Shown here: piece by piece, positions 1-42,800 of the stretch
Layout of the letters: each line of letters starts with the position of its first letter
Position numbering within the stretch: position 1 is the first letter of the stretch
Source of the DNA: a virus
Taxonomy: Duplodnaviria > Heunggongvirae > Uroviricota > Caudoviricetes
Length of the DNA: 42,800 nt
Virus record (IMG/VR): IMGVR_UViG_2703719347_000006
Span: 1-42,800 of that record
Reading direction: 5' to 3' (one strand)
Made by a program: the position numbers and the translations under genes
Notes under the pieces: model-generated
What the model was told of the DNA's origin: nothing
Seen by the model: only the letters and a program-made list of their open reading frames with translations
Database searches by the model: none

Positions 1-1053
1 CTAGTAGTAATGGTCATAACCTCCGCTTTCTCTTCTGGCTCTGGATGCTCTCACTCGTGCTTTTCTTAACATCCTTAACAGCGGGTGGGTTTGTACTTTG
101 TTCGAGTTTATTGTCTGTGAGGATAGTAACTCCCTGCGCTCTGTCTCTGCCTCTTTGGTGACCGCTATCACTGATAAATCCCAATCGTGTTTGCTAATTA
201 ACGGTGCTTGGAACGGGGTGATTGGTGAGCGATTTATGTCTTGTCGTTTCAATGTACGCTGTATCTGTCGCTTAACTTTGTAGTTGTCTTTCCTTGATGC
301 CTGAATGGCTTTTAGTATGCGTCTTACAGCATGAAAGCCAGTGATAGAAAGTGTTTCTTTTTTTATCTCATGCCGCGCCCAGCCATTCGAATAACCCCAA
401 ACGTTGGCATCTGACCAATCATATAGGCTCTTGCTCGCCTCTCTATTAAAGTCATTTAACTTAGTTTCGGGTTTTGCCATGTAATCAATCTGTTTACCTA
501 TACACCTTGTAGGCTCTGAATATTGCTGACCTTTCAAATCTAGATCCCACTGGGGAGGAACATTTGATGGGATTGCATTGTTTGCCAGTGTTACCCATTT
601 GCTGACAATTTTGCCTGCTTGCCCATTAATGCTTCTTTCGTTCACCATAATTATTGCGTGTACATGCGGCTCTGACTGGTGTTGAGCCCACTCCATGACG
701 TAAACCCACTGATTGCCTTTCGAAGTCAACCATCTGGTAAGTGCCTTTAACGCTTTGTTGAATTTCTCTGGCGTTGTTCCCTTAACGGGTCTGAAGGTAA
801 AGGAGTAGGGGATACCACTAGTTGATTCGACATCCAGAGTAAACAAAGCTCGCCTCATTGTACGCCATTTCTTCTTTGTCCAAGCTGGTGGTATGCAGTG
901 GTTAGCCTTTGATGATTGGCGTTTATTCTCCGCCTTTAATTCATTACGTTTGTGCGTAACTGATCTCACATAAGCTAATGTGCGACCATTGATGTGATTG
1001 ATTACGGCTTGTGATTTTGTGGATAGACTCGCGTCTTTATCGTATAATTCCAT
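1..1053 (-). CDS. Rolling-circle replication initiator-like protein (HUH endonuclease motifs)
   Basis: 350-aa ORF; motifs in canonical order FTLDV (motif I), HVHAII (HUH, motif II), DYMAKP (Y-x-x-K, motif III) with about 60-aa spacing; last visible gene of the leftward integrase operon. Confidence 0.45.
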   Translation of the reverse strand: MELYDKDASLSTKSQAVINHINGRTLAYVRSVTHKRNELKAENKRQSSKANHCIPPAWTKKKWRTMRRALFTLDVESTSGIPYSFTFRPVKGTTPEKFNKALKALTRWLTSKGNQWVYVMEWAQHQSEPHVHAIIMVNERSINGQAGKIVSKWVTLANNAIPSNVPPQWDLDLKGQQYSEPTRCIGKQIDYMAKPETKLNDFNREASKSLYDWSDANVWGYSNGWARHEIKKETLSITGFHAVRRILKAIQASRKDNYKVKRQIQRTLKRQDINRSPITPFQAPLISKHDWDLSVIAVTKEAETERRELLSSQTINSNKVQTHPLLRMLRKARVRASRARRESGGYDHYY

Positions 1054-1121
1054 GTGTAAAGTTCATATATTTCAATTGCTTCAAAGCCGACTCTCGCAAA
1101 GTCGGCTTTCTGCTTTGTCAA

Positions 1122-1508
1122 TCACAGGTATTTGGTTTCAATACCCTTGTAAACAGTTCTAAGCGTGTCTTCAGGCACTTTACCCACCAGCCCACGCAAC
1201 AACGACAACGTTATGTTTACCTTACGCAATGTCTTTACATATCTGGCGTTCGTCCTCCAGATCTTCAATGTTTCGTCTTTATCGCTGTGGTATGCTTCTA
1301 AATTGCGTTCTGTGACGTGATACGCCTCTGTTTTAAACTGCTCAACAGGAATTCCCCAATCGTTGCGTAACAGCGTTAAAACGCGACTACGTTCGTGATT
1401 TCCGGCTTTCCTTAATATGTCGTCAAACTCTTTTGGGGTAAGCTTCCTGCCACTTAGTAGGATATCGCGTATATTCGCGGCGACCTGAGAGCGTGTAAGA
1501 GTGCTCAT
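1122..1508 (-). CDS. Hypothetical protein (128 aa)
   Basis: ORF with 4-nt ATGA-type overlap with the upstream 64-aa gene (1505-1508), suggesting coupling; no recognisable motif. Confidence 0.4.
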   Translation of the reverse strand: MSTLTRSQVAANIRDILLSGRKLTPKEFDDILRKAGNHERSRVLTLLRNDWGIPVEQFKTEAYHVTERNLEAYHSDKDETLKIWRTNARYVKTLRKVNITLSLLRGLVGKVPEDTLRTVYKGIETKYL

Positions 1509-1699
1509 TTTCGTCCCCCCAGAAATCTGTCGGCAAATTGATCAAGGCTGGAGGCAAGCCACACCCGGCGCTTGCGTCCATTGATGGTCTGATTTATATA
1601 GGGAGGAAAGCTTCGGATATATCGCTTTAACTGATAGAAGCGTGACAGACAGACGCCAAGATATTCTGCTGCGTCTTTAGCGGTCAGGTAATTAATCAT
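1505..1699 (-). CDS. Small HTH DNA-binding protein (excisionase/MerR-like helix-turn-helix)
   Basis: 64-aa ORF with motif LTAKDAAEYLGVCLSRFYQL typical of HTH_17/excisionase-type DNA-binding domains. Confidence 0.4.
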   Translation of the reverse strand: MINYLTAKDAAEYLGVCLSRFYQLKRYIRSFPPYINQTINGRKRRVWLASSLDQFADRFLGGRK

Positions 1700-1780
1700 T
1701 TTATTCCCTTACTGTTGTACCAAAATGTAATATGGAGGAGACTTCCTGTCTCCCCAAATTACTCTACAATTTTTGTGCGA

Positions 1781-1972
1781 TTAAATCAGATCTATTACTA
1801 AGTAATCATCGCCAGAGGCAATGCCGATAGCTTTTCCACCGCTGGTGGATTTCACATCATAAACCCAGGTGCTGGTGCTCACCTTTTGTGGCTCTGATCT
1901 AATCAGTGCCGCGAAGGTTTCAAAATCAACATGGGTTACGTTCAGCTTTTGATTGGTAGGTTTCAACTGCAT
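1781..1972 (-). CDS. Hypothetical protein (63 aa)
   Basis: Short ORF co-oriented with neighbours; no motif recognised. Confidence 0.3.
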   Translation of the reverse strand: MQLKPTNQKLNVTHVDFETFAALIRSEPQKVSTSTWVYDVKSTSGGKAIGIASGDDYLVIDLI

Positions 1973-2020
1973 TCTTAATACCTAATAACGTATTGTTTGT
2001 ATCCTGTTTGTTTCTGTTCT

Positions 2021-2212
2021 TTAGTTACTACGCGATTCGGCTATACGTTGATCGATCCAGTCATCGATCTCGCTTTCAATAAAAGCTATTGCGCGAGCAC
2101 CAATCTTGACTGATTGGGGGAATTGTCCTCGGCTCATCAGAGCATATACCCACGCCTTGCTATAGCCAGTGCGTTTCAAAACCTCAGATAGCCGAATCAG
2201 CGACTTTTTCAT
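2021..2212 (-). CDS. AlpA-family transcriptional regulator (P4 Vis-like)
   Basis: 63-aa ORF; sequence LIRLSEVLKRTGYSKAWVYALMSRGQFPQSVKIGARAIAFIESEIDDWI matches the AlpA/Vis small HTH family pattern; downstream of a P4-type integrase. Confidence 0.6.
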   Translation of the reverse strand: MKKSLIRLSEVLKRTGYSKAWVYALMSRGQFPQSVKIGARAIAFIESEIDDWIDQRIAESRSN

Positions 2213-2368
2213 ATCTACCTCGTAATACGTTGCTTGACTATGTGAGATAGTAAATCATTGTTTTTTTAAGTTTTCTGTGAATTTGGAGAAAAAATTTTTG
2301 GGAATAGAATTACCCCAAATTGGGCGTTATTTTTTAGTTCTAACGCACAATTTGGGAACATCCTTCCT

Positions 2369-3115
2369 TTATTTTGGACGCTTTTTGGTTGCTTTTTTCT
2401 TAAATTTGGGGGCGTACTTATCCAAAGCGTTCGTTAGCAATCTCCGAAATGTATCTGGGTGGGTATCGCTGTCTTCATCGTTCCCGAATATTATGTTGTT
2501 TTCTATTACTTGGGCACTAACCCTATTGATACTAAGGTTTCCTCCACTATGGAAATCTTTGCTTGATTCAAATAAGGCAATCGCCATTCCGGCGATCATC
2601 TTTAAAGCCGTATCTTTTCCTCTCCAGTTTTGTTCTCTTTCTACTTTTTTTGACAGTGCTCCAATTTCTGGTTCGTTATCTGGAACATTCATATCCAGTT
2701 CTGGGAAGAAGTTCACAACCTCGGAGCGCTTGAAATAAAACGAATCGTAAGACCCATACCAATCATCCTCATCATCGTGATATAAAAAGTCTTCCCCTTT
2801 CCTAACGTTGAAAGTCCCTTCTTCCCCCGGTATCGGGCTCTCCCTGTATTCATGCCCCATAGCCAGAAGACCTAAAAACTCCACACACTGCTTTTCAAAG
2901 TCGTCATTAGTTGTAAAACCTGATACCCAATCGAACTGATAAAAGCCCAGCCCCCCTAAAGTATCTGGTTTAGCTTTGCTCAATCTGTAGTTACTTAAGA
3001 TAGCGGCAGCGATCATTCTTTCATTTTCATTGTTTAGTCTTGCCAGTTCGCTGATCAGATTACCAAACCAGATTTTATCTTCTGACTCGTTATAAAACGC
3101 ATCTAGTCCTGTCAT
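2369..3115 (-). CDS. Acidic hypothetical protein with basic C-terminal tail, translationally coupled to integrase
   Basis: ATG at 3115-3113 lies 1 nt after the integrase TAA stop (3119-3117); 248 aa from this ATG (ORF track gives a GTG start at 3124); D/E-rich core, C-terminal KFKKKATKKRPK; AT-rich by eye. Confidence 0.5.
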   Translation of the reverse strand: MTGLDAFYNESEDKIWFGNLISELARLNNENERMIAAAILSNYRLSKAKPDTLGGLGFYQFDWVSGFTTNDDFEKQCVEFLGLLAMGHEYRESPIPGEEGTFNVRKGEDFLYHDDEDDWYGSYDSFYFKRSEVVNFFPELDMNVPDNEPEIGALSKKVEREQNWRGKDTALKMIAGMAIALFESSKDFHSGGNLSINRVSAQVIENNIIFGNDEDSDTHPDTFRRLLTNALDKYAPKFKKKATKKRPK

Positions 3116-3116
3116 C

Positions 3117-4403
3117 TTAGTCACGGCGTGTTCTCCTTCCGAACTCGTAAGGGCTTATATGTATTTCTCGATTGGCGTCCAGATAATCTGCCCACCATTG
3201 AAGCATTAGTTTGCGCTCTTCTAAGTAATCAGCCTTGTGCTTGTAGGCTCTTTTAACGTCTTTATATTCTTTGTGGCTCATCTGGCGCTCTACTGCGTCC
3301 TCCTGCCACAAACCGGACTCCATCAGGGAACTACAGGCTGTGGCACGGAATCCATGTCCAGTTACGTCCTCTTGCGTGTTATAGCCCATTAAGCGTAATG
3401 CCTTGTTTACCGTGTTTTCACTCATCACGCCTTTGGTGTTTCTTTCATTCGGAAACACAACATCGTAGCTTCCGCTTAGTTCTCTCAACTGCTTTACAAT
3501 AGAAACAGCCTGACGGCTAAGAAGCACGATATGTTCGTCTTTTCCCGTTTTTGTGCCACGGGTGGAAAACCTCACACCATCGATAGGCTCTCTTTTTTTA
3601 GGGATAATCCACTCAGCCCGATCAAGGTCAAACTCTTTCCAACGGGCAAACCTTAACTCGCTTGAACGAACAAATGTCAACATGGTTAGCTCAATGGCAA
3701 GGCGGGTAAGAGGATTACCTTTAAAGCTGCCCAATCGAGTGAAAAAGTCTGGTAAATCTCTGGGATGTAGTGCGGCATGATGCTTAGTTTCATATTGCAT
3801 TAACCGGACATCGAGATCATTCGTGATGATTTCTGTCTTAATGCCGCTCAGACGGGCGCTATGTATGATGTCCTTAACTCGTTGTTTAAGTCGGTTGGCT
3901 GTATCGTGTTTCCCGGCGTCATCTACCTTCTTAAACAAAGGTAAAATTGTCATCGCCTCCAGTTTGCGAATATCCGAAGTGCCAATGTGAGGGAAAATAT
4001 ACATTTCAAGGCTTCTAAGTACGCGTTTTCGTTGGTCTTCGTTCCACATCTGGTGGCTTTCAACCCATTGACGTCCTATTGTCTCAAAAGTGAATGCGCC
4101 TTTTTCTTCTGCTTTTGCTGCTCTTTGCTCTGCTTTGGGATCTATCCCCTTGACTAACAACTTTTTGGCGTTGTCTCGTTTTTCTCTGGCGTCTTGTAAG
4201 CTAATGGTTGGATATACACCAAAAGCAAGTCTGTCTTCTTTCTTATCTGATGGGCGGCGATACTTCATTCGCCAATACTTCGACCCGGTCTGGGATACTT
4301 CAAGATAAAGACCACCACCATCAGACAATTTATAAGTTTTGTCTCGTGGCTTAGCTGCTTTGCACTGACGGTCTGTTAATTTGTTGAGGGTATTTCTGGA
4401 CAT
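3117..4403 (-). CDS. int: Tyrosine integrase, P4-type (arm-binding N-terminal domain)
   Basis: 428-aa ORF; N-terminus KLSDGGGLYLEVSQTGSKYWRMKYR typical of P4/CP4-57-type integrases; C-terminal catalytic region with HGFR...Y. Confidence 0.85.
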   Translation of the reverse strand: MSRNTLNKLTDRQCKAAKPRDKTYKLSDGGGLYLEVSQTGSKYWRMKYRRPSDKKEDRLAFGVYPTISLQDAREKRDNAKKLLVKGIDPKAEQRAAKAEEKGAFTFETIGRQWVESHQMWNEDQRKRVLRSLEMYIFPHIGTSDIRKLEAMTILPLFKKVDDAGKHDTANRLKQRVKDIIHSARLSGIKTEIITNDLDVRLMQYETKHHAALHPRDLPDFFTRLGSFKGNPLTRLAIELTMLTFVRSSELRFARWKEFDLDRAEWIIPKKREPIDGVRFSTRGTKTGKDEHIVLLSRQAVSIVKQLRELSGSYDVVFPNERNTKGVMSENTVNKALRLMGYNTQEDVTGHGFRATACSSLMESGLWQEDAVERQMSHKEYKDVKRAYKHKADYLEERKLMLQWWADYLDANREIHISPYEFGRRTRRD

Positions 4404-4655
4404 GTTGGGGGCACATATACAATCGAACCAGCAATGCCCCTAATTATGCCCCATAGATTTACTTGATTTCAATAGACGGAAATGGACGTCATGAGAATAA
4501 AATCTCTTTATTTTTATATGTTTACATGGGATTTATAGACAATGGTAGACGTTGGTGTACAGCGGGATGGTGTCCCCTGCAGACATCTACTTGAGGCAGC
4601 AGGGGATTGATTAGAATGGTGTTTTTGAGATGTGAGAAATATTTTACCCGCTATT

Positions 4656-4856
4656 TTACCCATTGGCGCGGCTTAAGAGCTTATTTTTGAATTCACAATG
4701 GTCACGATATAACCATCTTGCTCGTCCGTGGATAACTTTGGCTTTAGGCAGGTCGCCGGACTTAATCCGGTCATAGATGAAGGTCTTACCGAAGCCAGTA
4801 TCGGCCATGATGAATTTCAAATCAACTAGTGAATCAGGCTGTAGTTCGTGTTGCAT
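4656..4856 (-). CDS. xis: Excisionase-like small DNA-binding protein
   Basis: 66-aa ORF from internal ATG at 4856-4854 (Met75 of the track ORF 4656-5078); position between integrase and early recombination genes. Confidence 0.5.
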   Translation of the reverse strand: MQHELQPDSLVDLKFIMADTGFGKTFIYDRIKSGDLPKAKVIHGRARWLYRDHCEFKNKLLSRANG

Positions 4857-4935
4857 GAGTGCTATCTCCAAATAGGGAATCGAACCTGCAAATAAGGCAA
4901 TAAAAAACCGCATTGATGCGGCGATGGAAAATTCC

Positions 4936-5245: not shown

Positions 5246-5752
5246 TTAAATTGCGTGAATAGCGTGACGAGGGAAGGGGAGAGTTACTGGTGCAAAGGGT
5301 ATATCGTCGTCAAAATCCATCGGAGGTTCGTTGTGTTGTGCTGGTGATGATTGCTGCTGTGGCTTCTGTGATTGCCTGCTGGCTGCTTGTTGTTTGCTGT
5401 CGCCAATGCCGCCAAGCATTTGCATCACGCCATTAATTCCGACATGAACCTCGGTTGTGTAACGGTCTTGCCCTGACTGGTCTTTCCACTTTCTGGTTCT
5501 CAGCATTCCCTCGAAATAAATCTGATCACCTTTTTTCACATACTGCCCCACGACCTCAGCCAGTTTCCCGGATACAGCAACACGATGCCATTCAGTCAAT
5601 TCCTTTTGCTCGCCAGTATTTTTATCTCGCCATTGTTCTGACGTGGCTATTGTCAGGTTAGCGAACGCTGTACCTGATGGTGAGTATCGAACTTCCGGGG
5701 CTTGTCCTACCCGACCAAGGATAATCACCTTATTTACGCCTCTGCTTGCCAT
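5246..5752 (-). CDS. ssb: Single-stranded DNA-binding protein
   Basis: 168-aa ORF with OB-fold SSB N-terminus and acidic C-terminal tail DFDDDIPF. Confidence 0.85.
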
Positions 5753-6460
5753 TTATGCCGCCTGTTTTAGCTCGTTAACTCTGATGTTCATTACCTGAAC
5801 GCATTTAGCCTGCGCCTCCTCGTTGCCAGCCATTAATTGCCAGTCACGATGATAACGCTCGATGAGTTTTTTCTTGTCAGTTTCTGTTGACGCATAATCG
5901 CTGAAGTCTTTCAGGATTTGTTCGCAGTCAACCGATGGAGATTTCTGGTTGGTATTTTCTGGTGATGGTTTGTTATCTGATGCTGGGATTGCCCAGCCCG
6001 GCAGCGATGGAGGGAGCCAGTAAAATCCTGTTCCATCCTTGAGTTTTGCCCTGTGCCATCCCTGCTTTTTGTCGAGAGATGTTTGTGCGAAACCTTCCTC
6101 AAGGTTATACAGATACCGACCGATTCCCCACTGAACGGCAGCGCGCTTCATTGCACCGGAACGACCACCTTTGACGGCTTCTACCTGCGTGTTTTCAGCA
6201 GCATCCCATTTGGTTACCCATTCGGAATCAATCTTTATTGATATGCCGCATTCAACGCCGCCGTTGTTGGGAATATCGCGGTATTCATTGCGCCATCCTG
6301 CTTTGCCGCAAACATCGTCCAGGCGTTTCATGATTGCCCGGTTCGTGACATAAGCCAGCACCATAGCCCACACCTTGCCATCGCGTGTTTTACCGCTTTG
6401 CTGTATTCGCCATTCGATATCTTCAGGGCTGAATGGCTCATCGAATTTGTTCAAATCCAT
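5753..6460 (-). CDS. ssDNA-annealing recombinase (Rad52/Sak- or Erf-like)
   Basis: 235-aa ORF immediately upstream of ssb in the position of lambda bet; motif KRAAVQWGIGRYLY. Confidence 0.55.
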   Translation of the reverse strand: MDLNKFDEPFSPEDIEWRIQQSGKTRDGKVWAMVLAYVTNRAIMKRLDDVCGKAGWRNEYRDIPNNGGVECGISIKIDSEWVTKWDAAENTQVEAVKGGRSGAMKRAAVQWGIGRYLYNLEEGFAQTSLDKKQGWHRAKLKDGTGFYWLPPSLPGWAIPASDNKPSPENTNQKSPSVDCEQILKDFSDYASTETDKKKLIERYHRDWQLMAGNEEAQAKCVQVMNIRVNELKQAA

Positions 6461-6559
6461 AATTCACCTCAGAATGGACACGGCCCAAGGAAATAACGCT
6501 GATTTAATACTTCGACTCGGGACAAATTAAGGCATACCCGCATTCCTTCGCGGTCGCCA

Positions 6560-6718
6560 TTATGGCGATACCAGAGAGCTTTCTGCGTGTACATGCGTCT
6601 CTGTAACTTGCTCTCCTTCACTGTGGTTGCAAGTGACATGAATATCTCCTTCGTTACCGATTAATTCTTTCATCTGACGAATGAATTCTTCGTCTGACCA
6701 GTTATCTGTAAAACTCAT
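6560..6718 (-). CDS. Hypothetical small early protein (52 aa)
   Basis: ATG overlaps the TGA of the upstream Kil-like ORF (ATGA at 6715-6718); AGGA RBS; not in the ORF track because under 60 aa. Confidence 0.3.
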   Translation of the reverse strand: MSFTDNWSDEEFIRQMKELIGNEGDIHVTCNHSEGEQVTETHVHAESSLVSP

Positions 6719-6867
6719 TTCCTGCGATACCATGGAAGGTTGATAGCTGATTTCATCGCTTTATTTGCTTCAAGCCACATTTTTGAATCACCAATAAATC
6801 TGGCTATTACTGCTTTGTTTTGTGCTGCACGAAGCATCTGGTGATTGATGGCTATTTCATTGCGCAT
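6715..6867 (-). CDS. Kil-like small protein
   Basis: 50-aa ORF; segment AVIARFIGDSKMWLEANKAMK resembles lambda Kil as recalled; start overlaps stop of the cIII-like ORF. Confidence 0.4.
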   Translation of the reverse strand: MRNEIAINHQMLRAAQNKAVIARFIGDSKMWLEANKAMKSAINLPWYRRK

Positions 6868-6986
6868 AACGCCTCCAGTTGTTTCTTTGCTGCTCTGATT
6901 AATTGTTTAACTCGGCGTGATAATTCAGATTCGTGCGGGTAGAAAGCGGACATGACGCCGCTACCCGCGAGCTGAAAGTGCATCAT
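6852..6986 (-). CDS. cIII-like small protein (FtsH-inhibitor family)
   Basis: 44-aa ORF with strong AAGGAG RBS; HFQLAGSGVMSAFYPHESELSRRVKQLI resembles lambda cIII as recalled. Confidence 0.4.
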   Translation of the reverse strand: MMHFQLAGSGVMSAFYPHESELSRRVKQLIRAAKKQLEALCAMK

Positions 6987-7211
6987 GGGTAACTCCTTAT
7001 ATTTGATTGCATAACGAAAAACGCCTCGAGTGAAGCGTTATTGGTATGCATATAAAAAGGCCCTCACATTGGAGGGCAAAGAAGATTTCCAATAATCAGA
7101 ACAAGTCGGCTCCTGTTTAGTTACGAGCGACATTGCTCCGTGTATTCACTCGTTGGAATGAATACACAGTGCAGTGTTTATTCTGTTGTTTATGCCAAAA
7201 GTAAAGGCCGA

Positions 7212-7835
7212 CTATGCGGCCTCGGAAGGAAGTCCAATCATCTTATTCAAATCTTCTACCCGTAAAGCAGGAAGTGCTGTACTTGCTTTATCTGCTTCTT
7301 CTGGTAGCAATTCTTTGCTTTCAGGCCAAACTTCAATAAGTCGCTTAACTGTTGTGACTGAGTTCAAAGCAGCCCATACATTTGATTCGATATCCTTTTT
7401 CTTGGCTTCAAGTTTTTGTTGCAATGCGCAGATTTCATCAAACCTTTTTGTTATTTCGTGTTCTGCGCTAAACATGCATTTATCTTTGGTCGGAGTAGGG
7501 AGCAATATATCTTCGCCGTTGCCGTCTTTCCCATATGAATGCCATCCAACCCTTCTGCCAGATACAGTCAGATAAATTGAAGTAGAACTAACATCGTATG
7601 AGTAAAATGAACATCCCATCTTTTCAAGTTCTTCACTTATAGCTACCAACTTGGATGATAACTGATCCACTTCCTCAGTTTTCTTTTTACCGCCAAACGC
7701 AATAACTCTGGCGTCAAGTGCAAGCTGGTTCTTTAACTTTGTTACTTCTTTAAGTTCAGTGAAAACCCCAGACTTAATTAAAGCGTTACGAGCGATTTCC
7801 TCTTTCATTCTCGTAGTTAAGCGGATTGATGACAT
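7212..7835 (-). CDS. Hypothetical early-left protein (207 aa)
   Basis: ATG at 7835 with GAGGA RBS, 11 nt after the N stop; the track's TTG start at 7895 would overlap N and is rejected. Confidence 0.5.
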   Translation of the reverse strand: MSSIRLTTRMKEEIARNALIKSGVFTELKEVTKLKNQLALDARVIAFGGKKKTEEVDQLSSKLVAISEELEKMGCSFYSYDVSSTSIYLTVSGRRVGWHSYGKDGNGEDILLPTPTKDKCMFSAEHEITKRFDEICALQQKLEAKKKDIESNVWAALNSVTTVKRLIEVWPESKELLPEEADKASTALPALRVEDLNKMIGLPSEAA

Positions 7836-7846
7836 ATTAATTCCTC

Positions 7847-8173
7847 TCAAATAAGTGGTTTGCTGCCTAATTTCATTTTCTGGCGACCAACACAAGTCAC
7901 ACCCATTTCACTGCGTGGCTTGCTGTACCATGTGCGCTGATTCTTGCGCTCAATACGTTGCAGGTTGCTTTCAATCTGTTCGTGGTATTCAGCCAGCACC
8001 GTAAGGTCTATCGGATTCAGTGCGCTTTCTACTCGTGATTTCGGTTTGCGATTCAGCGAGAGAATAGGGCGGTTAACTGGTTTTGCGCTTACCCCAACCA
8101 ACAGGGGATTTGCTGCTTTCCATTGAGCCTGTTTCTCTGCGCGACGTTCGCGGCGGCGTGTTTGTGCATCCAT
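7847..8173 (-). CDS. N: Antitermination protein N
   Basis: 108-aa ORF beginning MDAQTRRRERRAEKQAQWKAANPLL (arginine-rich motif); matches lambda N as recalled; preceded by nutL. Confidence 0.9.
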   Translation of the reverse strand: MDAQTRRRERRAEKQAQWKAANPLLVGVSAKPVNRPILSLNRKPKSRVESALNPIDLTVLAEYHEQIESNLQRIERKNQRTWYSKPRSEMGVTCVGRQKMKLGSKPLI

Positions 8174-16808: not shown

Positions 16809-16883
16809 GGGTCAGTCGTATAAAGGTCATTACGGAAGGCTGTTAACCTTCTTATCGTGGTTCGAGTCCACGCTGTCCCGCCA
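16809..16883 (+). tRNA. tRNA-Asn (anticodon GUU), by manual cloverleaf folding
   Basis: 75 nt: acceptor gggtcag/ctgtccc (one mismatch), anticodon stem gaagg/ccttc, loop ctGTTaa, T-arm cgtgg-TTCGAGT-ccacg, discriminator g and CCA. Confidence 0.6.
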
Positions 16884-16888
16884 AATAT

Positions 16889-16964
16889 GCTGGTTTAGCT
16901 CCAATGGTAGAGCAGTCGCCTTGTAAGCGAATGGGTAGCGGTTCAAGTCCGTTAACCAGCACCA
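16889..16964 (+). tRNA. tRNA-Thr (anticodon UGU), by manual cloverleaf folding
   Basis: 76 nt: acceptor gctggtt/aaccagc, D-arm gctc/gagc with GG in loop, anticodon loop ctTGTaa, T-arm agcgg-TTCAAGT-ccgtt, discriminator a and CCA. Confidence 0.7.
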
Positions 16965-35217: not shown

Positions 35218-35570
35218 TGCGATACAGACGCGAAGACGCCGATGGCGATTATACCTTTGGCAGCGGTGATGACACCTGGCTGATTAACTCACCGGAGGCC
35301 GTGGCGCAGGCGGTAAAAACGCGATTCGAATTGTGGTATGGGCAATGGTTTCTCGATACCACCGAAGGGACTCCGTGGATCCAGTCTGTGCTCGGTAAGC
35401 AGAAGCCGGAAACCTACAACCTGGCGATCCGTAAGCGCATCCTCGAAACGCGTGGCGTTAAATCAATCCTCTCTTTCAATACGACGGTGGATACCACGAC
35501 CCGACGTGTCATGTTTTCCGCTGAAATCGACACTCTTTATGGAATAACGACTGTTACATCGGAGGCGTAA
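35217..35570 (+). CDS. Baseplate wedge protein (gpW/gp25-like)
   Basis: 117-aa ORF in the canonical V-W-J-I order. Confidence 0.4.
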   Translation: MRYRREDADGDYTFGSGDDTWLINSPEAVAQAVKTRFELWYGQWFLDTTEGTPWIQSVLGKQKPETYNLAIRKRILETRGVKSILSFNTTVDTTTRRVMFSAEIDTLYGITTVTSEA

Positions 35571-36766
35571 TGGCTCTGAACCTTGATTCTCTTGGTTTAT
35601 CTGCAAAGGTAACCGCAGAGGGGATCAGTGCGCCTGATTATCAGACGATACTCAGCACCCTGATTAGCTATTTTCAGCAGATTTATGGCAGTGATGCCTA
35701 CCTCGAACCGGACAGCAAAGACGGCCAGATGGTCGCTCTGGTGGCTCTGGCCATTCACGATGCCAACAACACGGCCATTTCTGTTTACCGGTCATTTTCT
35801 CCGTCGACGGCGCTGGACGATGCATTAACCAGTAACGTCAAAATTAACGGCATCACTCGCCGTGCTGCGACAAACTCTACGGTCGATGAGCTGATTGAAG
35901 GCGAAGCCGGAACGTTGATCACAAACGGGTCTGTGAAAGATGCCAACGGTATCATCTGGAATCTTCCTGCTCAGGTGACAATTGGTATTGATGGGACGGT
36001 TATTGCTACAGCGACGTGTTCTGTTGCTGGTGCTGTGGCGGCCCCTGCCGGGTCAGTCAATAAGATAAACACCCCGACACGTGGCTGGGTATCAGTAACT
36101 AACCCTCAAGCGGCTACCGTTGGCGTTGCTGCCGAAACAAATGCTGAATTGCGTGTCCGGCAATCACAGAGCGTTGCTTTACCATCTCTGACGCCGTTTG
36201 AGGCGGTAGATGGTGCGATAGCAAATATCAGCGGCGTAACGCGACACAAGCTGTATGAGAACGATACAGATACCACTGATGCAAATGGCCTGCCGCCGCA
36301 CTCAATCGCGGCCATTGTAGAAGGTGGTGATGCGACAGTCATTGCGAACAGCATTCGTGGTGTGAAAGGGCAGGGCGTAACACCCTACGGTAGTACGGTG
36401 ATTGTTGTGCCTGATAAGTACGGAAACCCTCACCCGGTAGGTTTTTCAAGGCCGGTCGATGTACCCATTTACGTCAAAATCACTATCGAGCCCCTTACGG
36501 GTTACACATCCCAGGTCGGCGAAGAGATAAAGGCGGCTGTATCTGCCTACATTAACTCTCTGGCAATCGGCGCCAGCGTTCTTCTCAGTCGCGTTTACTC
36601 ACCGGCTAACCTTGGTGTTGTCAGTGGAGGTAATGCCAGGTATTACGACATTACCGAGTTGCTGATCGGGACGTCTGCCGGTGGCGTAGCCGCGGCAAAC
36701 GTGGATATTGCCTTTGACCAGTCAGCATCCTGCGCCGTCAGCAATATTAATCTGGTGGTCTCATGA
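35570..36766 (+). CDS. Baseplate J-like protein
   Basis: 398-aa ORF between W-like and I-like genes. Confidence 0.5.
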   Translation: MALNLDSLGLSAKVTAEGISAPDYQTILSTLISYFQQIYGSDAYLEPDSKDGQMVALVALAIHDANNTAISVYRSFSPSTALDDALTSNVKINGITRRAATNSTVDELIEGEAGTLITNGSVKDANGIIWNLPAQVTIGIDGTVIATATCSVAGAVAAPAGSVNKINTPTRGWVSVTNPQAATVGVAAETNAELRVRQSQSVALPSLTPFEAVDGAIANISGVTRHKLYENDTDTTDANGLPPHSIAAIVEGGDATVIANSIRGVKGQGVTPYGSTVIVVPDKYGNPHPVGFSRPVDVPIYVKITIEPLTGYTSQVGEEIKAAVSAYINSLAIGASVLLSRVYSPANLGVVSGGNARYYDITELLIGTSAGGVAAANVDIAFDQSASCAVSNINLVVS

Positions 36767-37536
36767 GCAGATACACTGACCGCATAACAAACTACCACGC
36801 CGGTAAACCAAAGTTCTTTGCCCACGTCGACCTGTCCACCAGGCCACTGAGTGATGTTTCCGATGCCATGTCACGGCTAATACCCGATTTTGACATTGAT
36901 ACCGCCGTAGGCGTGCAACTCGACGTTGTGGGCGAATGGGTTGGTCGTTCCCGTCGCGTGGCTACACCGGTAACCGGGATTTATTTTTCGTGGGACACCG
37001 AACGGGTTGGCTGGGACCAGGGGATTTGGCAGGGACCATATGACCCAAACGACGGTTTTATCGATCTAAGCGATGAAATATATCGGCTAATTCTGAAGGT
37101 GAAAGTGGCGATAAACAACTGGGATGGTCAGAACGATTCGCTGCCTTCAATTCTTGATGCCGCCCTTGCCGGGTCCGGGATCCGCATGGCTATTGTCGAC
37201 AACCAGGATATGTCGATTTCTATCTGGATACTCGGTGACCCATCGGTAGCCCTAAGTGAAATAGACCGGTTAATTCTGGATAGCGCCGTCAATAAAGGCC
37301 CCTTTATCGCATTACCGGCAGGTTACGTACCATCGCGCTATGACATTAACCCGATTGACCAGGTTAACAGCGAGCTATGGTGGGCGATTCAAAACGGTTA
37401 TATGACGGTTAAGGCCGCCGGAGTTCGTGTCCGTGAAATAGAGACCGTCAGTGATGGTTATCAGTTTTTTGGCTTCGATATCGAAAATGACTATATCGCT
37501 GGTTTCGACCGCGGGTCATGGGGAGAGAGATTTTAA
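36763..37536 (+). CDS. Baseplate/tail protein I-like
   Basis: 257-aa ORF; its C-terminal two-thirds has a paralog at 41825-42300. Confidence 0.45.
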   Translation: MSRYTDRITNYHAGKPKFFAHVDLSTRPLSDVSDAMSRLIPDFDIDTAVGVQLDVVGEWVGRSRRVATPVTGIYFSWDTERVGWDQGIWQGPYDPNDGFIDLSDEIYRLILKVKVAINNWDGQNDSLPSILDAALAGSGIRMAIVDNQDMSISIWILGDPSVALSEIDRLILDSAVNKGPFIALPAGYVPSRYDINPIDQVNSELWWAIQNGYMTVKAAGVRVREIETVSDGYQFFGFDIENDYIAGFDRGSWGERF

Positions 37537-37673
37537 TGGCGACTAACGATTTTAAGCGCTTCGCTACTGGTAGTGGGGCAAACGTATTATCTCAGGCAGA
37601 CTATGAGTCACTATCTGCCCTGGCATCAGGGAAGGGCGCTAACGGCTATGTCATCATTGAGGAGTACGCATAA
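37536..37673 (+). pseudogene. Truncated tail-fibre N-terminal remnant (45 codons)
   Basis: MATNDFKRFATGSGANVLSQADYESLSALASG aligns with the N-terminus of the fibre ORF starting at 42300, then diverges and stops. Confidence 0.45.
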
Positions 37674-37870
37674 TGGCAGGTAATTACGCAGTCATTGAAA
37701 GTGGAATAGTTAAAAACATCATAATTGCGGAAAGCGGTTATGAATATGATGGTGCTGAACTTATCGAATATCCTGAAAGTGTATTTTGCCAGCCTGGGAT
37801 GTTTTATAACAAGGCAGACGGGCTATTTTACGATGATAAAGAATATTCAAAAATAAATAGCAAGAATTAA
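37673..37870 (+). CDS. Hypothetical protein (65 aa)
   Basis: ATG overlaps stop of the fibre remnant; followed by a terminator. Confidence 0.35.
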   Translation: MAGNYAVIESGIVKNIIIAESGYEYDGAELIEYPESVFCQPGMFYNKADGLFYDDKEYSKINSKN

Positions 37871-37894
37871 GTCACTAAATTACCAGAAAGCAAA

Positions 37895-37916
37895 CTGACC
37901 TTATGGTCGGTTTTTT
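37895..37916 (+). terminator. Rho-independent terminator
   Basis: Stem ctgacc (37895-37900) / ggtcgg (37905-37910), loop ttat, then tttttt. Confidence 0.55.
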
Positions 37917-37928
37917 ATTGGGGCGACT

Positions 37929-39788
37929 ATGAGTGAATACGATACCGGCAATCCTGTGCCGTCTGCATCCATGCCTGATGCATGGGATAATATGCAGTCT
38001 ATTGACAAGTTCGTTAATAGCAGTGATGAAACCATTACCACACGCACAGGCAAACAGTTAGATACTTTGCATGGCGTTAATGTTAAAGCGGACAACCAGC
38101 TAACGCAGCAGCAAGCAGATTTTGAAACATCGCAAGAAGAAAGGGATGCTGTAGTTGAGGAAACCAGGCAAAACCTGATCCCTCTGAGCAAGCAATACAT
38201 GACGCTTGCTGATGCACAGGCAGATATTGCTAATATCCCTGCGGGAAGTGCCACTTATTACCGCAGCCCGGATGATAGCGCGCTGGCTATTGAGGTAATC
38301 AATAACGCCGGGACGTTACAACCTACCGGACGAAAAATGCCATCCATGGACAGCATCATTTCGGCTTTGGGTGTGTACTTCGACGGTAGCAACCCAGACC
38401 TGCTGATTGGCTTTAAAGACGTGGATAACAAAGTTTTCGCGGCATGGGACCTGTCGGGAAAATATATTGGGGATCTGGAGTATGCGTCATTTGATGAGAC
38501 GGGACGGATGATTGCAGATCTGGCAGTGCTGGGTGATATGCAGATAAGCCAGGCGTATCAGAACCCGGATGTAGCTATGTATATCCTCGATGATGATGGG
38601 CTTGTGCTGCTGGAGGTCCCATTCGTCGAGTCGCAGAGCGACGTCAACGAGGAAATAGAGGCAATCAATACCAGGCTGGATGTGTTTGTTCGTGATGACG
38701 GCATTTTAAAGTCGGAGTTTTACGGCCTCAATTTCATGTCGGAGACACGTCGCGCATTGATGATGGCAGAAGCTAAGGAGGGGCAATTTGTCATCAATAT
38801 CATTGGGAACTCGTGGGTAGCTAACGAGTGGAACCTTCCGCGTCGTTTAACTCAGGTCCTGCAAGACCGATTCGGTGATGCAGGCGCCGGATTTGCTGGT
38901 TACAACCGTAACTTTGCCCATCCAGGACGTGCATTTCTAGCGATTCAATCGGGAACGTGGACTGAGGAGACTGTTACGACACCTACAGCCACAAACTTCG
39001 GCCCGGCTGGCTCACAGGGGATCACCTCTACCGCAGGTGCCTCTATGGCATTCCAGTCTCTGACTGGTGATACCTCAGCGGCTATCTACCACAATGGCAG
39101 CTCCAGCGTCAGCCCTGTAATCAAAATCAAGTACAAGGACAATGTCACGGGCGACCAGACTGCTGAAACACAGGTTACCCTTTCTGGTACGGGTGTAGTC
39201 AGAACTGAGTTGCCCGTACCGCCTGTGACAGGAAACTGGACGGCTACGCTGACGCTCGTTTCAGGAACACTGGCGTTCTGTGGCATCGAGCTGAAAAAAA
39301 GTACCCCGGGTGTTCGTGTCAATAAATTAGGTACTGGCGGCTCTACCTGGCGGCAATGGACAACCCTGAACCGTGCCGGGTGGGTGCAGGGCATCACGCC
39401 GCTGGCGGCAAACCTGAATATCCTGCTGGAGTCCGTCAACGGCGCGTACAGCTACGATGCCGACTACGAGGCGACCTATACAACGGAAATGGCATCACGC
39501 GTGAGGTCAGCCTCTGCCTTCAGCGACGTTCTGGTTATCTCGCCACCACAAACACTGGGCACACCAACCTACTCGTTACGCGACTTCGCATACAAGCTGA
39601 GAGGTATCGCTGGCTCTATTCAGGCAGGGCATATCGATCTGCAACAGGTTTTCGGACAAAACATCGCAGAGTATACGGACAATGGGAAGCGCTACATCCT
39701 GTCATCAGATGTAAACCATCCAACATATCCCGCCGGGCAATGCGTTATTACTGAAACTGTACTCCGCGCCATCCTTTCTGCTTTTTAA
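37929..39788 (+). CDS. Tailspike/tail fibre with C-terminal SGNH-hydrolase-like (esterase) domain
   Basis: 619-aa ORF; block-I-like INIIGNSW and block-V-like DVNHPTY (D-x-x-H) near the C-terminus. Confidence 0.5.
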   Translation: MSEYDTGNPVPSASMPDAWDNMQSIDKFVNSSDETITTRTGKQLDTLHGVNVKADNQLTQQQADFETSQEERDAVVEETRQNLIPLSKQYMTLADAQADIANIPAGSATYYRSPDDSALAIEVINNAGTLQPTGRKMPSMDSIISALGVYFDGSNPDLLIGFKDVDNKVFAAWDLSGKYIGDLEYASFDETGRMIADLAVLGDMQISQAYQNPDVAMYILDDDGLVLLEVPFVESQSDVNEEIEAINTRLDVFVRDDGILKSEFYGLNFMSETRRALMMAEAKEGQFVINIIGNSWVANEWNLPRRLTQVLQDRFGDAGAGFAGYNRNFAHPGRAFLAIQSGTWTEETVTTPTATNFGPAGSQGITSTAGASMAFQSLTGDTSAAIYHNGSSSVSPVIKIKYKDNVTGDQTAETQVTLSGTGVVRTELPVPPVTGNWTATLTLVSGTLAFCGIELKKSTPGVRVNKLGTGGSTWRQWTTLNRAGWVQGITPLAANLNILLESVNGAYSYDADYEATYTTEMASRVRSASAFSDVLVISPPQTLGTPTYSLRDFAYKLRGIAGSIQAGHIDLQQVFGQNIAEYTDNGKRYILSSDVNHPTYPAGQCVITETVLRAILSAF

Positions 39789-39797
39789 GGTACTTTT

Positions 39798-40697
39798 ATG
39801 ACAACTATTTTTCAGGCACCAGTTCCAAGCAATAACCCAGCGCTGCAGTATGCGGTGCCAGATAACCTCTTGAAAGGGTACGGGACGAAAGAGGGGACTA
39901 CTGATGGGGTATATCTGTTCCGCCTCGATGACAAACGATCGTTTCCTCTACAGGCCGCGCCGACGAGCAATGCTGAAGGCGCAATCGTGAATCTGGCTGA
40001 TAGTGTTAGCGCGCAGGCATCCCTTGGTGGCGACGTGTCTGCATTCGTGTGGAACGGAACACGTAAATCACTGGCGATGAACAGTAAAAGCGCACCGTGT
40101 TACCTGCAGAGCGCCAGTAACTTTATGGCCCGATTTGATGCCACCACCCACCCGTCGAAACTCCAGTATTTTGCGCTTGGAATGTACGTGCGTATTCCGT
40201 CAGCTGATGATTTTGTCGCGGTCAGTACCAACTACTCAGGTATCTGCGGGACGGCGGAATCCCTGACACCGGCAAACGAGTTTGGCGGAATTGCTTTCAC
40301 TAACGTTAACGGCACAAAGGCGATCAATGCCATTCGCGGGACTGACGGCGGCGCGCTGCGCACAGTAGCTGTCCCGGCGACTAATTTCCTCGGCAAAGTG
40401 TGCCTGGTCGTCGTCTACCGGGACGCCGCAGGGATGCACCTCTATGTCGAGGCAACCGACGGGACAAAGGCTTCTGCGATGACCGCGATTGCGAATGTCC
40501 CTGTTTTGACAACGACCATGACCAGCCGGAGCCTGAAATTCGGCGTTACTGGTTTTTACTCCGGTAGCCTCGTCTATAAACATGAGTTTTTTGGCGGCTG
40601 GTTAATCGACCTGGAAACTATCACCGTTTCTGATATCCCTGCGTTTGCATCTGCCGACCTGGCCAGACAGATCGCCAGAGGGTGGATGACAAGCTAA
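39798..40697 (+). CDS. Hypothetical protein (299 aa) downstream of tailspike
   Basis: ORF 10 nt after the tailspike stop; no motif recognised. Confidence 0.4.
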   Translation: MTTIFQAPVPSNNPALQYAVPDNLLKGYGTKEGTTDGVYLFRLDDKRSFPLQAAPTSNAEGAIVNLADSVSAQASLGGDVSAFVWNGTRKSLAMNSKSAPCYLQSASNFMARFDATTHPSKLQYFALGMYVRIPSADDFVAVSTNYSGICGTAESLTPANEFGGIAFTNVNGTKAINAIRGTDGGALRTVAVPATNFLGKVCLVVVYRDAAGMHLYVEATDGTKASAMTAIANVPVLTTTMTSRSLKFGVTGFYSGSLVYKHEFFGGWLIDLETITVSDIPAFASADLARQIARGWMTS

Positions 40698-40777
40698 AAA
40701 CCATTGTGTGTTAATTTGTTGTCTGCCTGAAATGATTTTATCTGTCAGCCAACTATTGATCTGCCACTCACTTAAAA

Positions 40778-40797
40778 CTACTGTATATAAAAACAGT
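40778..40797. promoter_or_regulatory. LexA (SOS) box
   Basis: TACTGTATATAAAAACAGTA: CTGT-N8-ACAG with AT-rich spacer, 20 nt upstream of the 79-aa ORF. Confidence 0.7.
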
Positions 40798-40816
40798 ATT
40801 TATCGGAGGGCAGATC

Positions 40817-41056
40817 ATGCTTAGGCAGTCAGACATCGCCGCGGCTTTCCGCGAGTCCATTTTGCGCAGTTCCAAGGGGTTCCAGTACCTTCACACCCGC
40901 GACTTCGTTACTGCGCTTCGCCGGCGCGGCATTCATTTTACCGAGGTGGAGGCTAACGCCTGGATCGCTCGCGAGCAGACGTATTTTGTCGATAAGACGC
41001 CTGACCATAGCGAAAACAGGCTGTGGATGATGGCCAACATGGGGAGGGTGATCTAA
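40817..41056 (+). CDS. SOS-regulated hypothetical protein (79 aa)
   Basis: ATG 40817 with GGAGGG RBS just downstream of the LexA box; overlaps the next gene (TAATG). Confidence 0.45.
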   Translation: MLRQSDIAAAFRESILRSSKGFQYLHTRDFVTALRRRGIHFTEVEANAWIAREQTYFVDKTPDHSENRLWMMANMGRVI

Positions 41057-41373
41057 TGGGCTTTCCTTCGCCGGCGTCAGACTACGTTGAGCAGCGTCTG
41101 TCTGTTAACTCGATCTGCAATGTAGGCCCAAACACGCTAGTTTTCGAGCGTTCTGGTGGTTACGTTGTACTGGATATCTCCCTGAAGCCAAAGCAGGGTA
41201 GTCAGGTTCTGATCCAGCACGGCGGCGGGACGGAGCTTGCCACGCTGAGAGGGCGGTCGCTGATAACCGAAGATGGCGAAGCAATTGAAGGTGAGGCCTT
41301 GGATGATGTCACTGTCGCAGGCGTCGTGACGCACATCATTTGTGATGTGCGAAGCGATAGCCTGGCGGTTTAA
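41056..41373 (+). CDS. UmuD'-like protein (HumD-like, lacking the RecA-cleavage N-terminus)
   Basis: Starts MGFPSPASDYVEQR, aligning with UmuD from Gly25; catalytic Ser and Lys of UmuD appear replaced (SGGYV, ATLRGR). Confidence 0.65.
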   Translation: MGFPSPASDYVEQRLSVNSICNVGPNTLVFERSGGYVVLDISLKPKQGSQVLIQHGGGTELATLRGRSLITEDGEAIEGEALDDVTVAGVVTHIICDVRSDSLAV

Positions 41374-41547
41374 CAATGAAAGAGTGGTGCGCACCGTAAC
41401 TACAACAAGTATGTCCGCAGTTATGGTGCGATACCTTGCGGGTTGAGTAAACGGCCAGTGTTCATTTCTGGATATCTGCTCGCAGATCTTGGCATCTAAG
41501 GAGGTAGCGCAGATGGAACCTGACCCTGGAAGAGTTCGCGTAATGGC

Positions 41548-41820
41548 TTACTGGACTGCACGACCATCGATGTAATCAGCCCACCACTGCATCATCTACC
41601 TGCGCTTATCGAGATACTGAGCATGGTTGTAAATCCCGCGCACAGATCCGCCGTTGGCATGTGCCAGTTGCACTTCAATGGCGTCGGCAGGCCATTCGTG
41701 CTCGTTCATAATCGTGCTGAATTCATGCCTGAATCCGTGACCGCTTTCCAGACCTTCATAGCCGATTTGTTTGATCACAAGCAATACCGCGTTCTCGCAG
41801 ATTGGCTTCTTCTTATCGTT
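41548..41820 (-). pseudogene. Integrase remnant (C-terminal catalytic region only, with in-frame TAG)
   Basis: HGFRHEF...LAHANGGSVRGIYNHAQYLDKRR then TAG (41598-41596), then in-frame MMQWWADYIDGRAVQ to TAA (41550-41548); homology begins abruptly near 41820. Confidence 0.6.
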
Positions 41821-42300
41821 GAGCCAATTAGCGGCGTTTATTTCAGCTGGGACACTGACGGGCTCGGATATGACCAGGGCATCTGGCAAGGGCCATATGA
41901 TCCTGATTCTGGCTATACGACGCTAAGCGATGAGACGTACCGCATCATTCTGAAAGCGAAGATTGCGATTAATAACTGGGACGGGCGGAACGACTCGCTG
42001 CCACCAATTCTGGACGCTGCAACTGCTGGCTCTGGCCTGAAGATGCAGATCGTCGACAACCAGGACATGACGATATCGGTCTGGGTGTTCCCTGAGACTG
42101 ATATTTCTGATGTGTCTCTCGAACTGATCGCCGCTATCAAACAGGGCTATCTCACCGTTAAATCAGCTGGCGTATGGGCCGGTGATGTTGAAACGCCTTC
42201 GGTAGAAACACCGTCAGAAGGCTCTAAATTCTTTGGGTTTGATATGGATAACGAATACATCGGCGGGTTCGATGTTGGAGCATGGGGGACAATACTCTAA
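41623..42300 (+). pseudogene. 5'-truncated paralog of the gpI-like gene, fused to unrelated upstream sequence
   Basis: Residues from about 68 onward (GVYFSWDTDGLGYDQGIWQGPYDP...) parallel 36763-37536; the first ~67 codons are antisense to the integrase remnant. Confidence 0.45.
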
Positions 42301-42800
42301 TGGCAATAAACAACTTTAAACCTTTCGCGCTTGATCCGAACGCTAACGTCACCTCACAAGCTGACTGGGAAGCACTTCCGGCTCTGCTTTCAGGGTTTAC
42401 GGCAGGTAAAGCATCCAGCGCACAGGTCAACAAAGCTATTCGGCAAGCCAGCTTTATCGCGGCAGCGTTGGCGCAGTACACCGCCAACAAAAGCGGGCTG
42501 GATGTGCTTGATGATGGAGACCTGAACGGGTTTATATCCAAAATGGGGACCGCTTTCGGGAAGGATTTCCAGGCCCTTGATGCCACGCTGACGGCATTAG
42601 CTGGGCTGGAAACCGGTGCAAATAAACTCCCGTATTTCACTGGAAATGATACAGCTGCGCAGACTGATTTGACTTCTGTTGGCCGTGACATTATCGGGAA
42701 AAAGACTATTGCTGACATTCTCACATACCTTGGTTTGGGAGAAACGATAAATAAAGCCTCCGGAGCTATGCAGAAATCGGCTAATGGATCTGATATTTCT
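42300..42800 (+). CDS. Tail fibre protein, N-terminal part (runs off the window)
   Basis: Frame open from ATG 42300 to the window end; N-terminus MAINNFKPFALDPNANVTSQADWEALPALLSG. Confidence 0.55.
   Translation, partial: MAINNFKPFALDPNANVTSQADWEALPALLSGFTAGKASSAQVNKAIRQASFIAAALAQYTANKSGLDVLDDGDLNGFISKMGTAFGKDFQALDATLTALAGLETGANKLPYFTGNDTAAQTDLTSVGRDIIGKKTIADILTYLGLGETINKASGAMQKSANGSDIS

Follow-up and report, generated by a model that had tools for sequence, protein, structure and literature searches.

An integrase remnant joined to a truncated baseplate gene, probably a recombination scar within a single argW-integrated prophage of Escherichia coli

Results

The integrase remnant

The window, that is, the whole 42,800-nucleotide stretch analysed here (positions 1 to 42,800 of the Caudoviricetes record IMGVR_UViG_2703719347_000006), carries near its right end, on the minus strand at 41548-41821, only codons 297-385 of a tyrosine integrase of the IntS/KplE1 type (hereafter int′). 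To its left lie a 174-bp spacer and a UmuD-like gene; to its right follow, on the plus strand, a truncated copy of a DUF2612 (gpI-like) baseplate gene and the 5′ part of a gp53-like tail-fibre gene of the original cassette, which is cut by the end of the window (42300-42800). The minus-strand frame reads ...LNDKKKPICENAV...HGFRH...GIYNHAQYLDKRR, stop, MMQWWADYIDGRAVQ, stop, and translation of 41374-41892 on the same strand gives ...LNDKKKPICENAVLLVIKQIGYEGLESGHGFRHEFSTIMNEHEWPADAIEVQLAHANGGSVRGIYNHAQYLDKRR, stop, MMQWWADYIDGRAVQ, stop. An alignment with full-length integrases, which a preliminary description of this DNA had proposed and which we ran with IntS (385 aa), HK633 Int (393 aa) and Klebsiella phage RCIP0114 Int (386 aa), places the truncation point at IntS residue 297. 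That description saw in the minus strand only the catalytic C-terminal part of an integrase, and this view is confirmed by a match to Pfam Phage_integrase (PF00589) at profile positions 98-170 of 172 (E=1.8e-14, with the stop masked); the profile is missing up to position 97, and DUF2612 sequence is there instead. At the DNA level, 41576-41825 is 96.8% identical to the intact intS 3′ end of E. coli EJN001 and ECO3183 and of phage HK633.

The C-terminal motifs of tyrosine recombinases (HxxR, the second His and the nucleophilic Tyr) are present in int′ (HGFRH, LAHA and GIYNH). A complete PF00589 catalytic domain, including the box I Arg and the Lys, is not, and by alignment to lambda Int we take the remnant to be devoid of the first catalytic Arg (Arg-I) and of the Lys. 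The arm-DNA-binding domain (PF13356) and the central domain (PF22022) of P4-type/IntS integrases, which related genomes retain in their intact intS and which the integrase encoded at 3117-4403 also has, are both absent from int′ as well. Because the arm-binding and core-binding domains, along with Arg-I and Lys, are missing, int′ is unable to act as a recombinase. An intact upstream half of the remnant does not exist.

The remnant is itself a mosaic. Its E. coli IntS-type part (41599-41821, minus strand), made up of the last base of codon 296 and codons 297-370, differs from the resident intS by two mismatches only, at 41784 and 41791. The remainder (41548-41595, minus strand), which comprises the 15 codons MMQWWADYIDGRAVQ and the closing TAA at 41548-41550, is the allele of Klebsiella phage RCIP0114, to which 41507-41597 shows zero mismatches. 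The switch between the two parents, from intS-type to RCIP0114-type, falls within 41597-41604. Compared with IntS of the KplE1/CPS-53 prophage of E. coli K-12 and its relatives in Sf6, HK620 and HK633, all of them argW-specific P4-type tyrosine integrases, int′ is thus alike in its approximately 99% DNA identity over codons 297-370. It is unlike the intact protein in that it consists of the last 89 codons only, is interrupted by a TAG and ends in 15 codons of the RCIP0114 type, and, unlike in IntS loci, no att core adjoins it.

The in-frame TAG that had been reported for the remnant is indeed there: at 41596-41598 (minus strand), where the 97-codon frame of the ORF list ends, it takes the place of the codon for Glu-371 of IntS, a position at which IntS, HK633 Int and RCIP0114 Int all carry GAA or GAG. 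With the adjoining position 41599 it makes up a two-base change, from AGA GAG to AGG TAG; 41598 and 41599 are the sole private substitutions of int′, and they fall exactly at the parental switch. The TAG and the RCIP0114-type tail were found together in all 10 chromosomal loci checked (EJN001, 5CRE51, 98219 and seven further assemblies), and all five plasmid loci checked (L008, L009, L015, L020 and L021, see below) lack the TAG and carry a tail of the intS type. A sequencing or assembly error within an otherwise intact integrase, in favour of which there is nothing beyond the general possibility, can be considered ruled out, since the identical TAG recurs in 10 independent chromosomal assemblies and since the 5′ 296 codons are gone, with DUF2612 sequence there instead. 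The TAG has no consequence, because int′ is already non-functional.

RefSeq flags int′ as a partial integrase in EJN001, 5CRE51 and 98219, so that as such it is already known to annotation, and it resembles the partial integrase pseudogenes that PGAP reports from cryptic and mosaic prophages ('incomplete; partial in the middle of a contig; missing N-terminus'). The PGAP call on int′ ends at the TAG and omits the 15 further codons, the mosaic origin and the junction shared with phage-plasmids.

The junction and the truncated baseplate gene

At 41821/41822 int′ is fused to codon 68 of the DUF2612 gene. When the full-length DUF2612 allele of strain PK8277 is used as reference, integrase identity runs, base by base, to 41821 and DUF2612 identity begins at 41822, which bears out the observation that integrase homology ends abruptly exactly where the truncated gpI copy begins. 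Only a GCC trinucleotide (41823-25) matches both parents, and the microhomology at the join amounts to at most 3 nt and is imperfect. The join is an illegitimate one, neither site-specific nor homologous. A 12-nt imperfect inverted repeat (41796-41807 and 41822-41833, 10/12 complementary) straddles the junction; it may be due to chance or may have aided the illegitimate join.

The truncated copy (DUF2612′; 41822-42300, plus strand) corresponds to codons 68-226 of the ECO3183-type allele. Its longest ORF, of 225 aa, spans 41623-42300, and PGAP instead calls a chimeric 191-aa ORF starting at 41725; the N-terminus of either consists of antisense int′. The 41623-42300 ORF matches DUF2612 only at profile positions 62-177 of 181, so that the second copy does not hold a full-length gpI-like baseplate wedge domain (PF11041), its codons 1-67 having been replaced by antisense int′. 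The first DUF2612 copy, at 36763-37536, is full length.

The 46-nt junction between int′ and DUF2612′ occurs in 9 of 5426 complete E. coli genomes, and an exact 26-mer scan of viral contigs and species-representative genomes gave no match. The exact 191-aa product was found on 151 contigs, all from Escherichia or Shigella, and the 225-aa chimeric ORF is open and identical (225/225 aa) in two types of replicon, prophage and phage-plasmid. These figures describe a scar that is moderately spread and recent.

The 174-bp gap

The distance of 174 bp from the stop of the UmuD-like gene (41373) to the end of the remnant had been given correctly, and the spacer in between (41374-41547) had been put forward as a candidate att site or prophage boundary. 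This proposal did not hold up. The gap is colinear, at 96.8% identity, with the stretch that separates the UmuD-like gene from int in RCIP0114, a free phage isolated from sewage. Over 40752-41820 as a whole the two sequences are colinear at 87.7% identity, and the counterpart of this segment is found in the middle of the phage genome, with the tail genes on one side and, on the other, an intact int and then xis. Both flanks of the gap are thus phage DNA, neither side being bacterial, and the combination of a core or repeat with a non-phage flank that would make an att site or prophage boundary is not found at 41374-41547. There is no copy of the argW 16-nt core in the gap even with 3 mismatches allowed, the proposed repeat search with repeat finders returned no significant repeat shared with the left end of the window, and tRNA scans detected no tRNA fragment. 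In a search of the gap for RNA and terminators, Rfam gave nothing at E<=1, the predicted fold was no more stable than that of shuffled sequence (z-score -0.37), and nothing was seen apart from a local hairpin of 16 bp (41386-41435) and a single weak site resembling a terminator.

A module boundary does exist in the gap, because homology to the Klebsiella prophage Kp4864-1 stops inside it, at about 41484. The gap can therefore be divided into a left part of 111 bp (41374-41484) that travels with the UmuD-like gene cassette and a right part (41485-41547) that travels with the 3′ flank of int. Together with the finding that the cassette of the UmuD-like gene and its 79-aa neighbour forms the extreme record end in several Klebsiella prophage-derived records, this is what would speak for an att site or for a boundary between two prophages at this place. 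We reject such a site in view of the RCIP0114 colinearity, which extends through the int 3′ end, the phage DNA on both flanks and the failure to find core, left-end repeat or tRNA fragment; moreover, the att core of the IntS family lies upstream of int (also PMC2951348). The gap is ordinary phage intergenic DNA between a UmuD-like gene and int.

Limits of the prophage and the neighbouring island

A 16-nt core, ATGGTGTCCCCTGCAG, which corresponds to the 3′ end of argW, lies at 4567-4582 (plus strand) and adjoins torI/xis (at about 4656-4856); it represents attR and the true left boundary of the prophage. Queries with the argW region and with the core, allowing 3 mismatches, found the KplE1 core once in the window, at this position. 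In KplE1 the 16-nt core is duplicated, and attL overlaps the intS promoter (PMC2951348). The same KplE1-type arrangement is found here, with the core CTGCAGGGGACACCAT at both ends (at the attL end by homology to near-identical genomes), intS by argW and torI opposite; in HK633 and RCIP0114 the core sits between the int 5′ end and xis.

The window is near-identical to the argW region of the E. coli chromosomes EJN001, EBJ001, 5CRE51, EC31, P21_SE1_04.20 and 98219. In EJN001, 5CRE51, 98219 and seven assemblies int′ is followed by DUF2612′, a gp53-like gene, tfa, an intact intS, a tRNA-Arg gene and yfdC; in these relatives the intact intS, to the right of what the window covers, encodes 385 aa, DUF2612′ is annotated with 191 aa, and the tRNA-Arg gene is argW. 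From homology to these near-identical genomes we infer that the attL end and the intact intS lie outside the window. On this basis the window contains one single argW-integrated prophage, running from 4567 to argW, about 2.3 kb past the right edge; its working integrase is the intact intS by argW, and integration and excision would depend on intS and torI.

The P4-type integrase of 428 aa encoded at 3117-4403 (minus strand), named as the full int in the preliminary description, is not that of the prophage but part of a separate island, which borders on attR and lies beyond the core at 4567-4582. That int′ is distinct from it stands, the protein being 32% identical to IntS. In the window the island (1-4566) encodes, besides this integrase, a 251-aa protein, small DNA-binding proteins and a rolling-circle Rep (1-1053). 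It measures about 10.5 kb in 5CRE51, also encodes an AlpA-like regulator and further genes, and is absent from EJN001, in which csc sucrose genes adjoin torI; at least 80% of a 4.7-kb island query was recovered in 221 of 5426 E. coli genomes. The two elements, island and prophage, appear to share the argW core in tandem.

Some further observations concern the attachment region. The last 31 nt of argW are represented by two collinear 16-nt halves, at 4567-4582 and 4876-4891, about 290 bp apart, which flank torI with one half on each side. An identical split is seen in phage HK633, and it could be due to chance or be the trace of an older, longer att identity. In the RefSeq record of HK633 (locus L004, NC_019719) attP is annotated downstream of int, at 3802-3882; the argW-type 16-nt core of this phage is located at 5296-5311, together with a region resembling the intS promoter, between int and xis, and the attP annotation looks misplaced. 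The prophage also carries two tRNA genes, tRNA-Asn (GTT) and tRNA-Thr (TGT), at 16809-16964.

The replaced tail-fibre block and the accessory cassette

ECO3183 harbors a prophage with a simple right end, J, DUF2612 (226 aa), gp53-like, tfa, intS and argW. The window is 100% identical to it from 30979 to about 35,200. Between about 35,400 and 35,780, where J begins, the identity drops from this 100% to about 65%, a level that is kept through J and DUF2612; from 41833 on it is back at 98.9%. The drop at 35,400-35,780 probably marks the left crossover of an exchange, and what sets the window apart from ECO3183 is a foreign block of about 6 kb, with int′ as its end. The replacement tail-fibre block proper (35570-40697, plus strand) consists of a variant J (J-alt), a variant DUF2612 gene (DUF2612-alt, the full-length copy mentioned above), a 45-codon fibre stub, a 619-aa fibre gene and a gene for a 299-aa protein. 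The fibre genes that separate DUF2612-alt from the UmuD-like cassette vary from one chromosomal carrier to another, coding for 619 and 299 aa, for 812 and 270 aa, or for a GDSL protein of 1006 aa. Because the fibre genes differ among the chromosomal carriers, the fibre region upstream of the scar must therefore have been exchanged repeatedly. No similarity that would reveal a shared N-terminal attachment domain was detected by BLASTP between the two fibres. At 37537-37872 the 45-codon stub, a P2-H-like fibre N-terminus starting MATNDFKRFATGSGANVLSQADYESL..., is followed by a 65-aa ORF, both sitting between DUF2612-alt and the 619-aa fibre gene; EJN001 is without 194 bp at this place, which is another scar of fibre exchange.

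Between the fibre block and the gap lies a two-gene accessory cassette (40817-41373, plus strand), encoding a 79-aa protein (phrog_3893, 40817-41056) and a UmuD-like protein of 105 aa (phrog_3469, 41056-41373), which is colinear with Klebsiella phages. The segment 40752-41484, also seen in loci L010 and L011, has 82-92% identity with many Klebsiella phages. Several prophage-derived records have this cassette at their extreme end, and it appears to be mobile and to sit, as a rule, beside the integration module. In a draft assembly (GCA_008917205.1, locus L018, 8968-10097) the gp53-like gene and tfa are followed by an inverted tfa and Collar-domain fibre genes, with no intS, which suggests a further rearrangement at this end of the prophage.

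Copies in phage-plasmids

Phage-plasmids of the D6/P1 type, 92-94 kb in size and found in E. coli and Shigella, share the identical 46-nt junction; they were assigned by their P1 gp16, R and DarA genes and their 82% identity to phage D6. Here the tail of int′ is of the intS type (...RREMMQWWADWLDEKVE, stop), without the TAG, and the genes are ordered as the gp53 C-terminal part, tfa, int′, DUF2612′ and the gp53 N-terminal part. The insert is exactly one unit of 2155 bp (5989-8143 of the ECO3183 locus L007), circularly permuted and inserted at a 44-nt patch common to fibre genes, and tfa is near-identical in both copies. Since the argW prophage family, and not the P1-like plasmids, is the native setting of int′ and DUF2612′, the junction probably arose in a prophage, in the order gp53-tfa-int′-DUF2612′-gp53. 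In the five plasmid loci listed above the 2.15-kb cassette splits a large S-like fibre gene, and the adjacent Cin-like invertase gene is reduced to a 64-aa fragment, which PGAP calls 'incomplete'. None of the tail genes seen nearby in the P1-like carrier plasmids is a DUF2612 gene.

Discussion

The reading that we favor, at a probability of roughly 0.8, is that the feature is a non-functional recombination scar inside a single argW-integrated prophage of the IntS/KplE1 type. As the base-by-base mapping shows, one illegitimate join linked codon 68 of DUF2612 to the 3′ 89 codons of intS, which the plus strand carries in antisense. The topology of the join suggests that this came about through a tandem duplication, or through re-insertion of a 2.15-kb circle, of the segment DUF2612′-gp53 fibre-tfa-int′, the product of which would have been ...gp53-tfa-int′-DUF2612′-gp53-tfa-intS-argW, with the new junction between int′ and DUF2612′. 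Later, in the lineage of the window, homologous recombination would have swapped the upstream copy for a foreign block comprising J-alt, DUF2612-alt, other fibre genes, the genes for the 79-aa and UmuD-like proteins and the 3′ tip of an int of the RCIP0114 type. Of the two crossovers of this exchange, the left one would lie at the start of J, at about 35.4-35.8 kb, and the right one inside int′, at 41597-41604, the site of the AG-to-GT double substitution that makes the TAG; the nonsense codon may thus have arisen at, or just after, the right crossover. On this reading, the right-hand neighbours of the remnant belong to one and the same prophage, as its original fibre cassette and its real integrase. 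Since the pure chromosomal intermediate, gp53-tfa-int′ joined to DUF2612′-gp53-tfa-intS, was absent from all collections searched, we infer the order of these events. No donor of the replacement block was identified in E. coli.

It could also be that two IntS-type prophages once lay head to tail at argW as a tandem double lysogen and that one illegitimate deletion of about 35 kb took away the 5′ two thirds of the left int, the hybrid att site and the right prophage from xis to codon 67 of DUF2612. DUF2612′-gp53-tfa-intS would then be the remains of the older prophage, whose integrase the newer one borrows. Such a deletion would yield exactly the observed junction and gene order. With the core upstream of int, a tandem array puts the left int face to face with the right xis, and the separate island at the same core attests to repeated use of the site. 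Against this, a check of relatives, as the preliminary description had suggested, brought up no intact second prophage or dilysogen in 5426 complete E. coli genomes, PLSDB, phage records and a sample of draft assemblies, nor any partial intermediate among the 5426 genomes; in ECO3183, the closest relative of simpler make-up, J-DUF2612-gp53-tfa-intS-argW occurs once. Left of J, the backbone matches this single prophage at 100% identity, and the right-hand cassette is intact in it; a replacement within one prophage is the simpler fit to that backbone. The phage-plasmids, moreover, show one exact permuted unit, with near-identical tfa in both copies, as a duplication would produce. Thus, we consider a former double lysogen unlikely, and a duplication within one prophage followed by replacement of the upstream copy is preferred.

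Another question is whether the scar has acquired a function. Antisense int′ might provide a promoter or a start and a new N-terminus to a truncated but functional DUF2612′, so that the second fibre cassette would be expressed and the phage would have two fibres. From 41623 onward the frame on the plus strand stays open, PGAP annotates a 191-aa CDS, a sigma-70-like site (41684-41712) lies upstream of the ATG at 41725, and the exact 225-aa product recurs in prophage and phage-plasmid contexts on more than 150 contigs. Against this, the one promoter-like site found compares with 2.1 expected by chance, and the first 67 residues of DUF2612 are gone; in the P1-like carriers the tail genes seen nearby include no DUF2612 gene, and there the piece is passenger-like; the two fibres are without N-terminal similarity, and the exchange that brought in the new fibre also replaced the baseplate genes J and DUF2612. 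Recent transfer explains the identity across contexts. Co-option of the scar is therefore doubtful in our view. It is just as doubtful that the scar serves as a portable linker that moves the fibre cassette between argW prophages and P1/D6-like phage-plasmids, with int′ as a homology handle and with a DUF2612′ ORF that might let the second fibre set be expressed.

Exchange of fibre genes at conserved patches was reportedly described by Haggard-Ljungquist et al. in 1992 and by Sandmeier in 1994. The present case is like the tail-fibre mosaicism of P2, Mu, P1 and lambdoid phages in that fibre genes differ among near-identical prophages. It is unlike it in that the end of the mobile block is marked by an integrase fragment, which would also have served as the right-hand homology for the later exchange.

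For annotation, the scar implies that the limits of the prophage should be set at the argW core (4567-4582) and at argW, right of the window, that the working integrase should be given as the intS outside the window, and that the integrase at 3117-4403 should be assigned to the neighbouring island. An internal integrase fragment of this kind is not to be taken for a prophage border by prophage-finding tools. Beyond this, the locus offers a base-resolved example of how fibre cassettes are stacked and swapped between a prophage and phage-plasmids, as an illustration rather than as a new principle.
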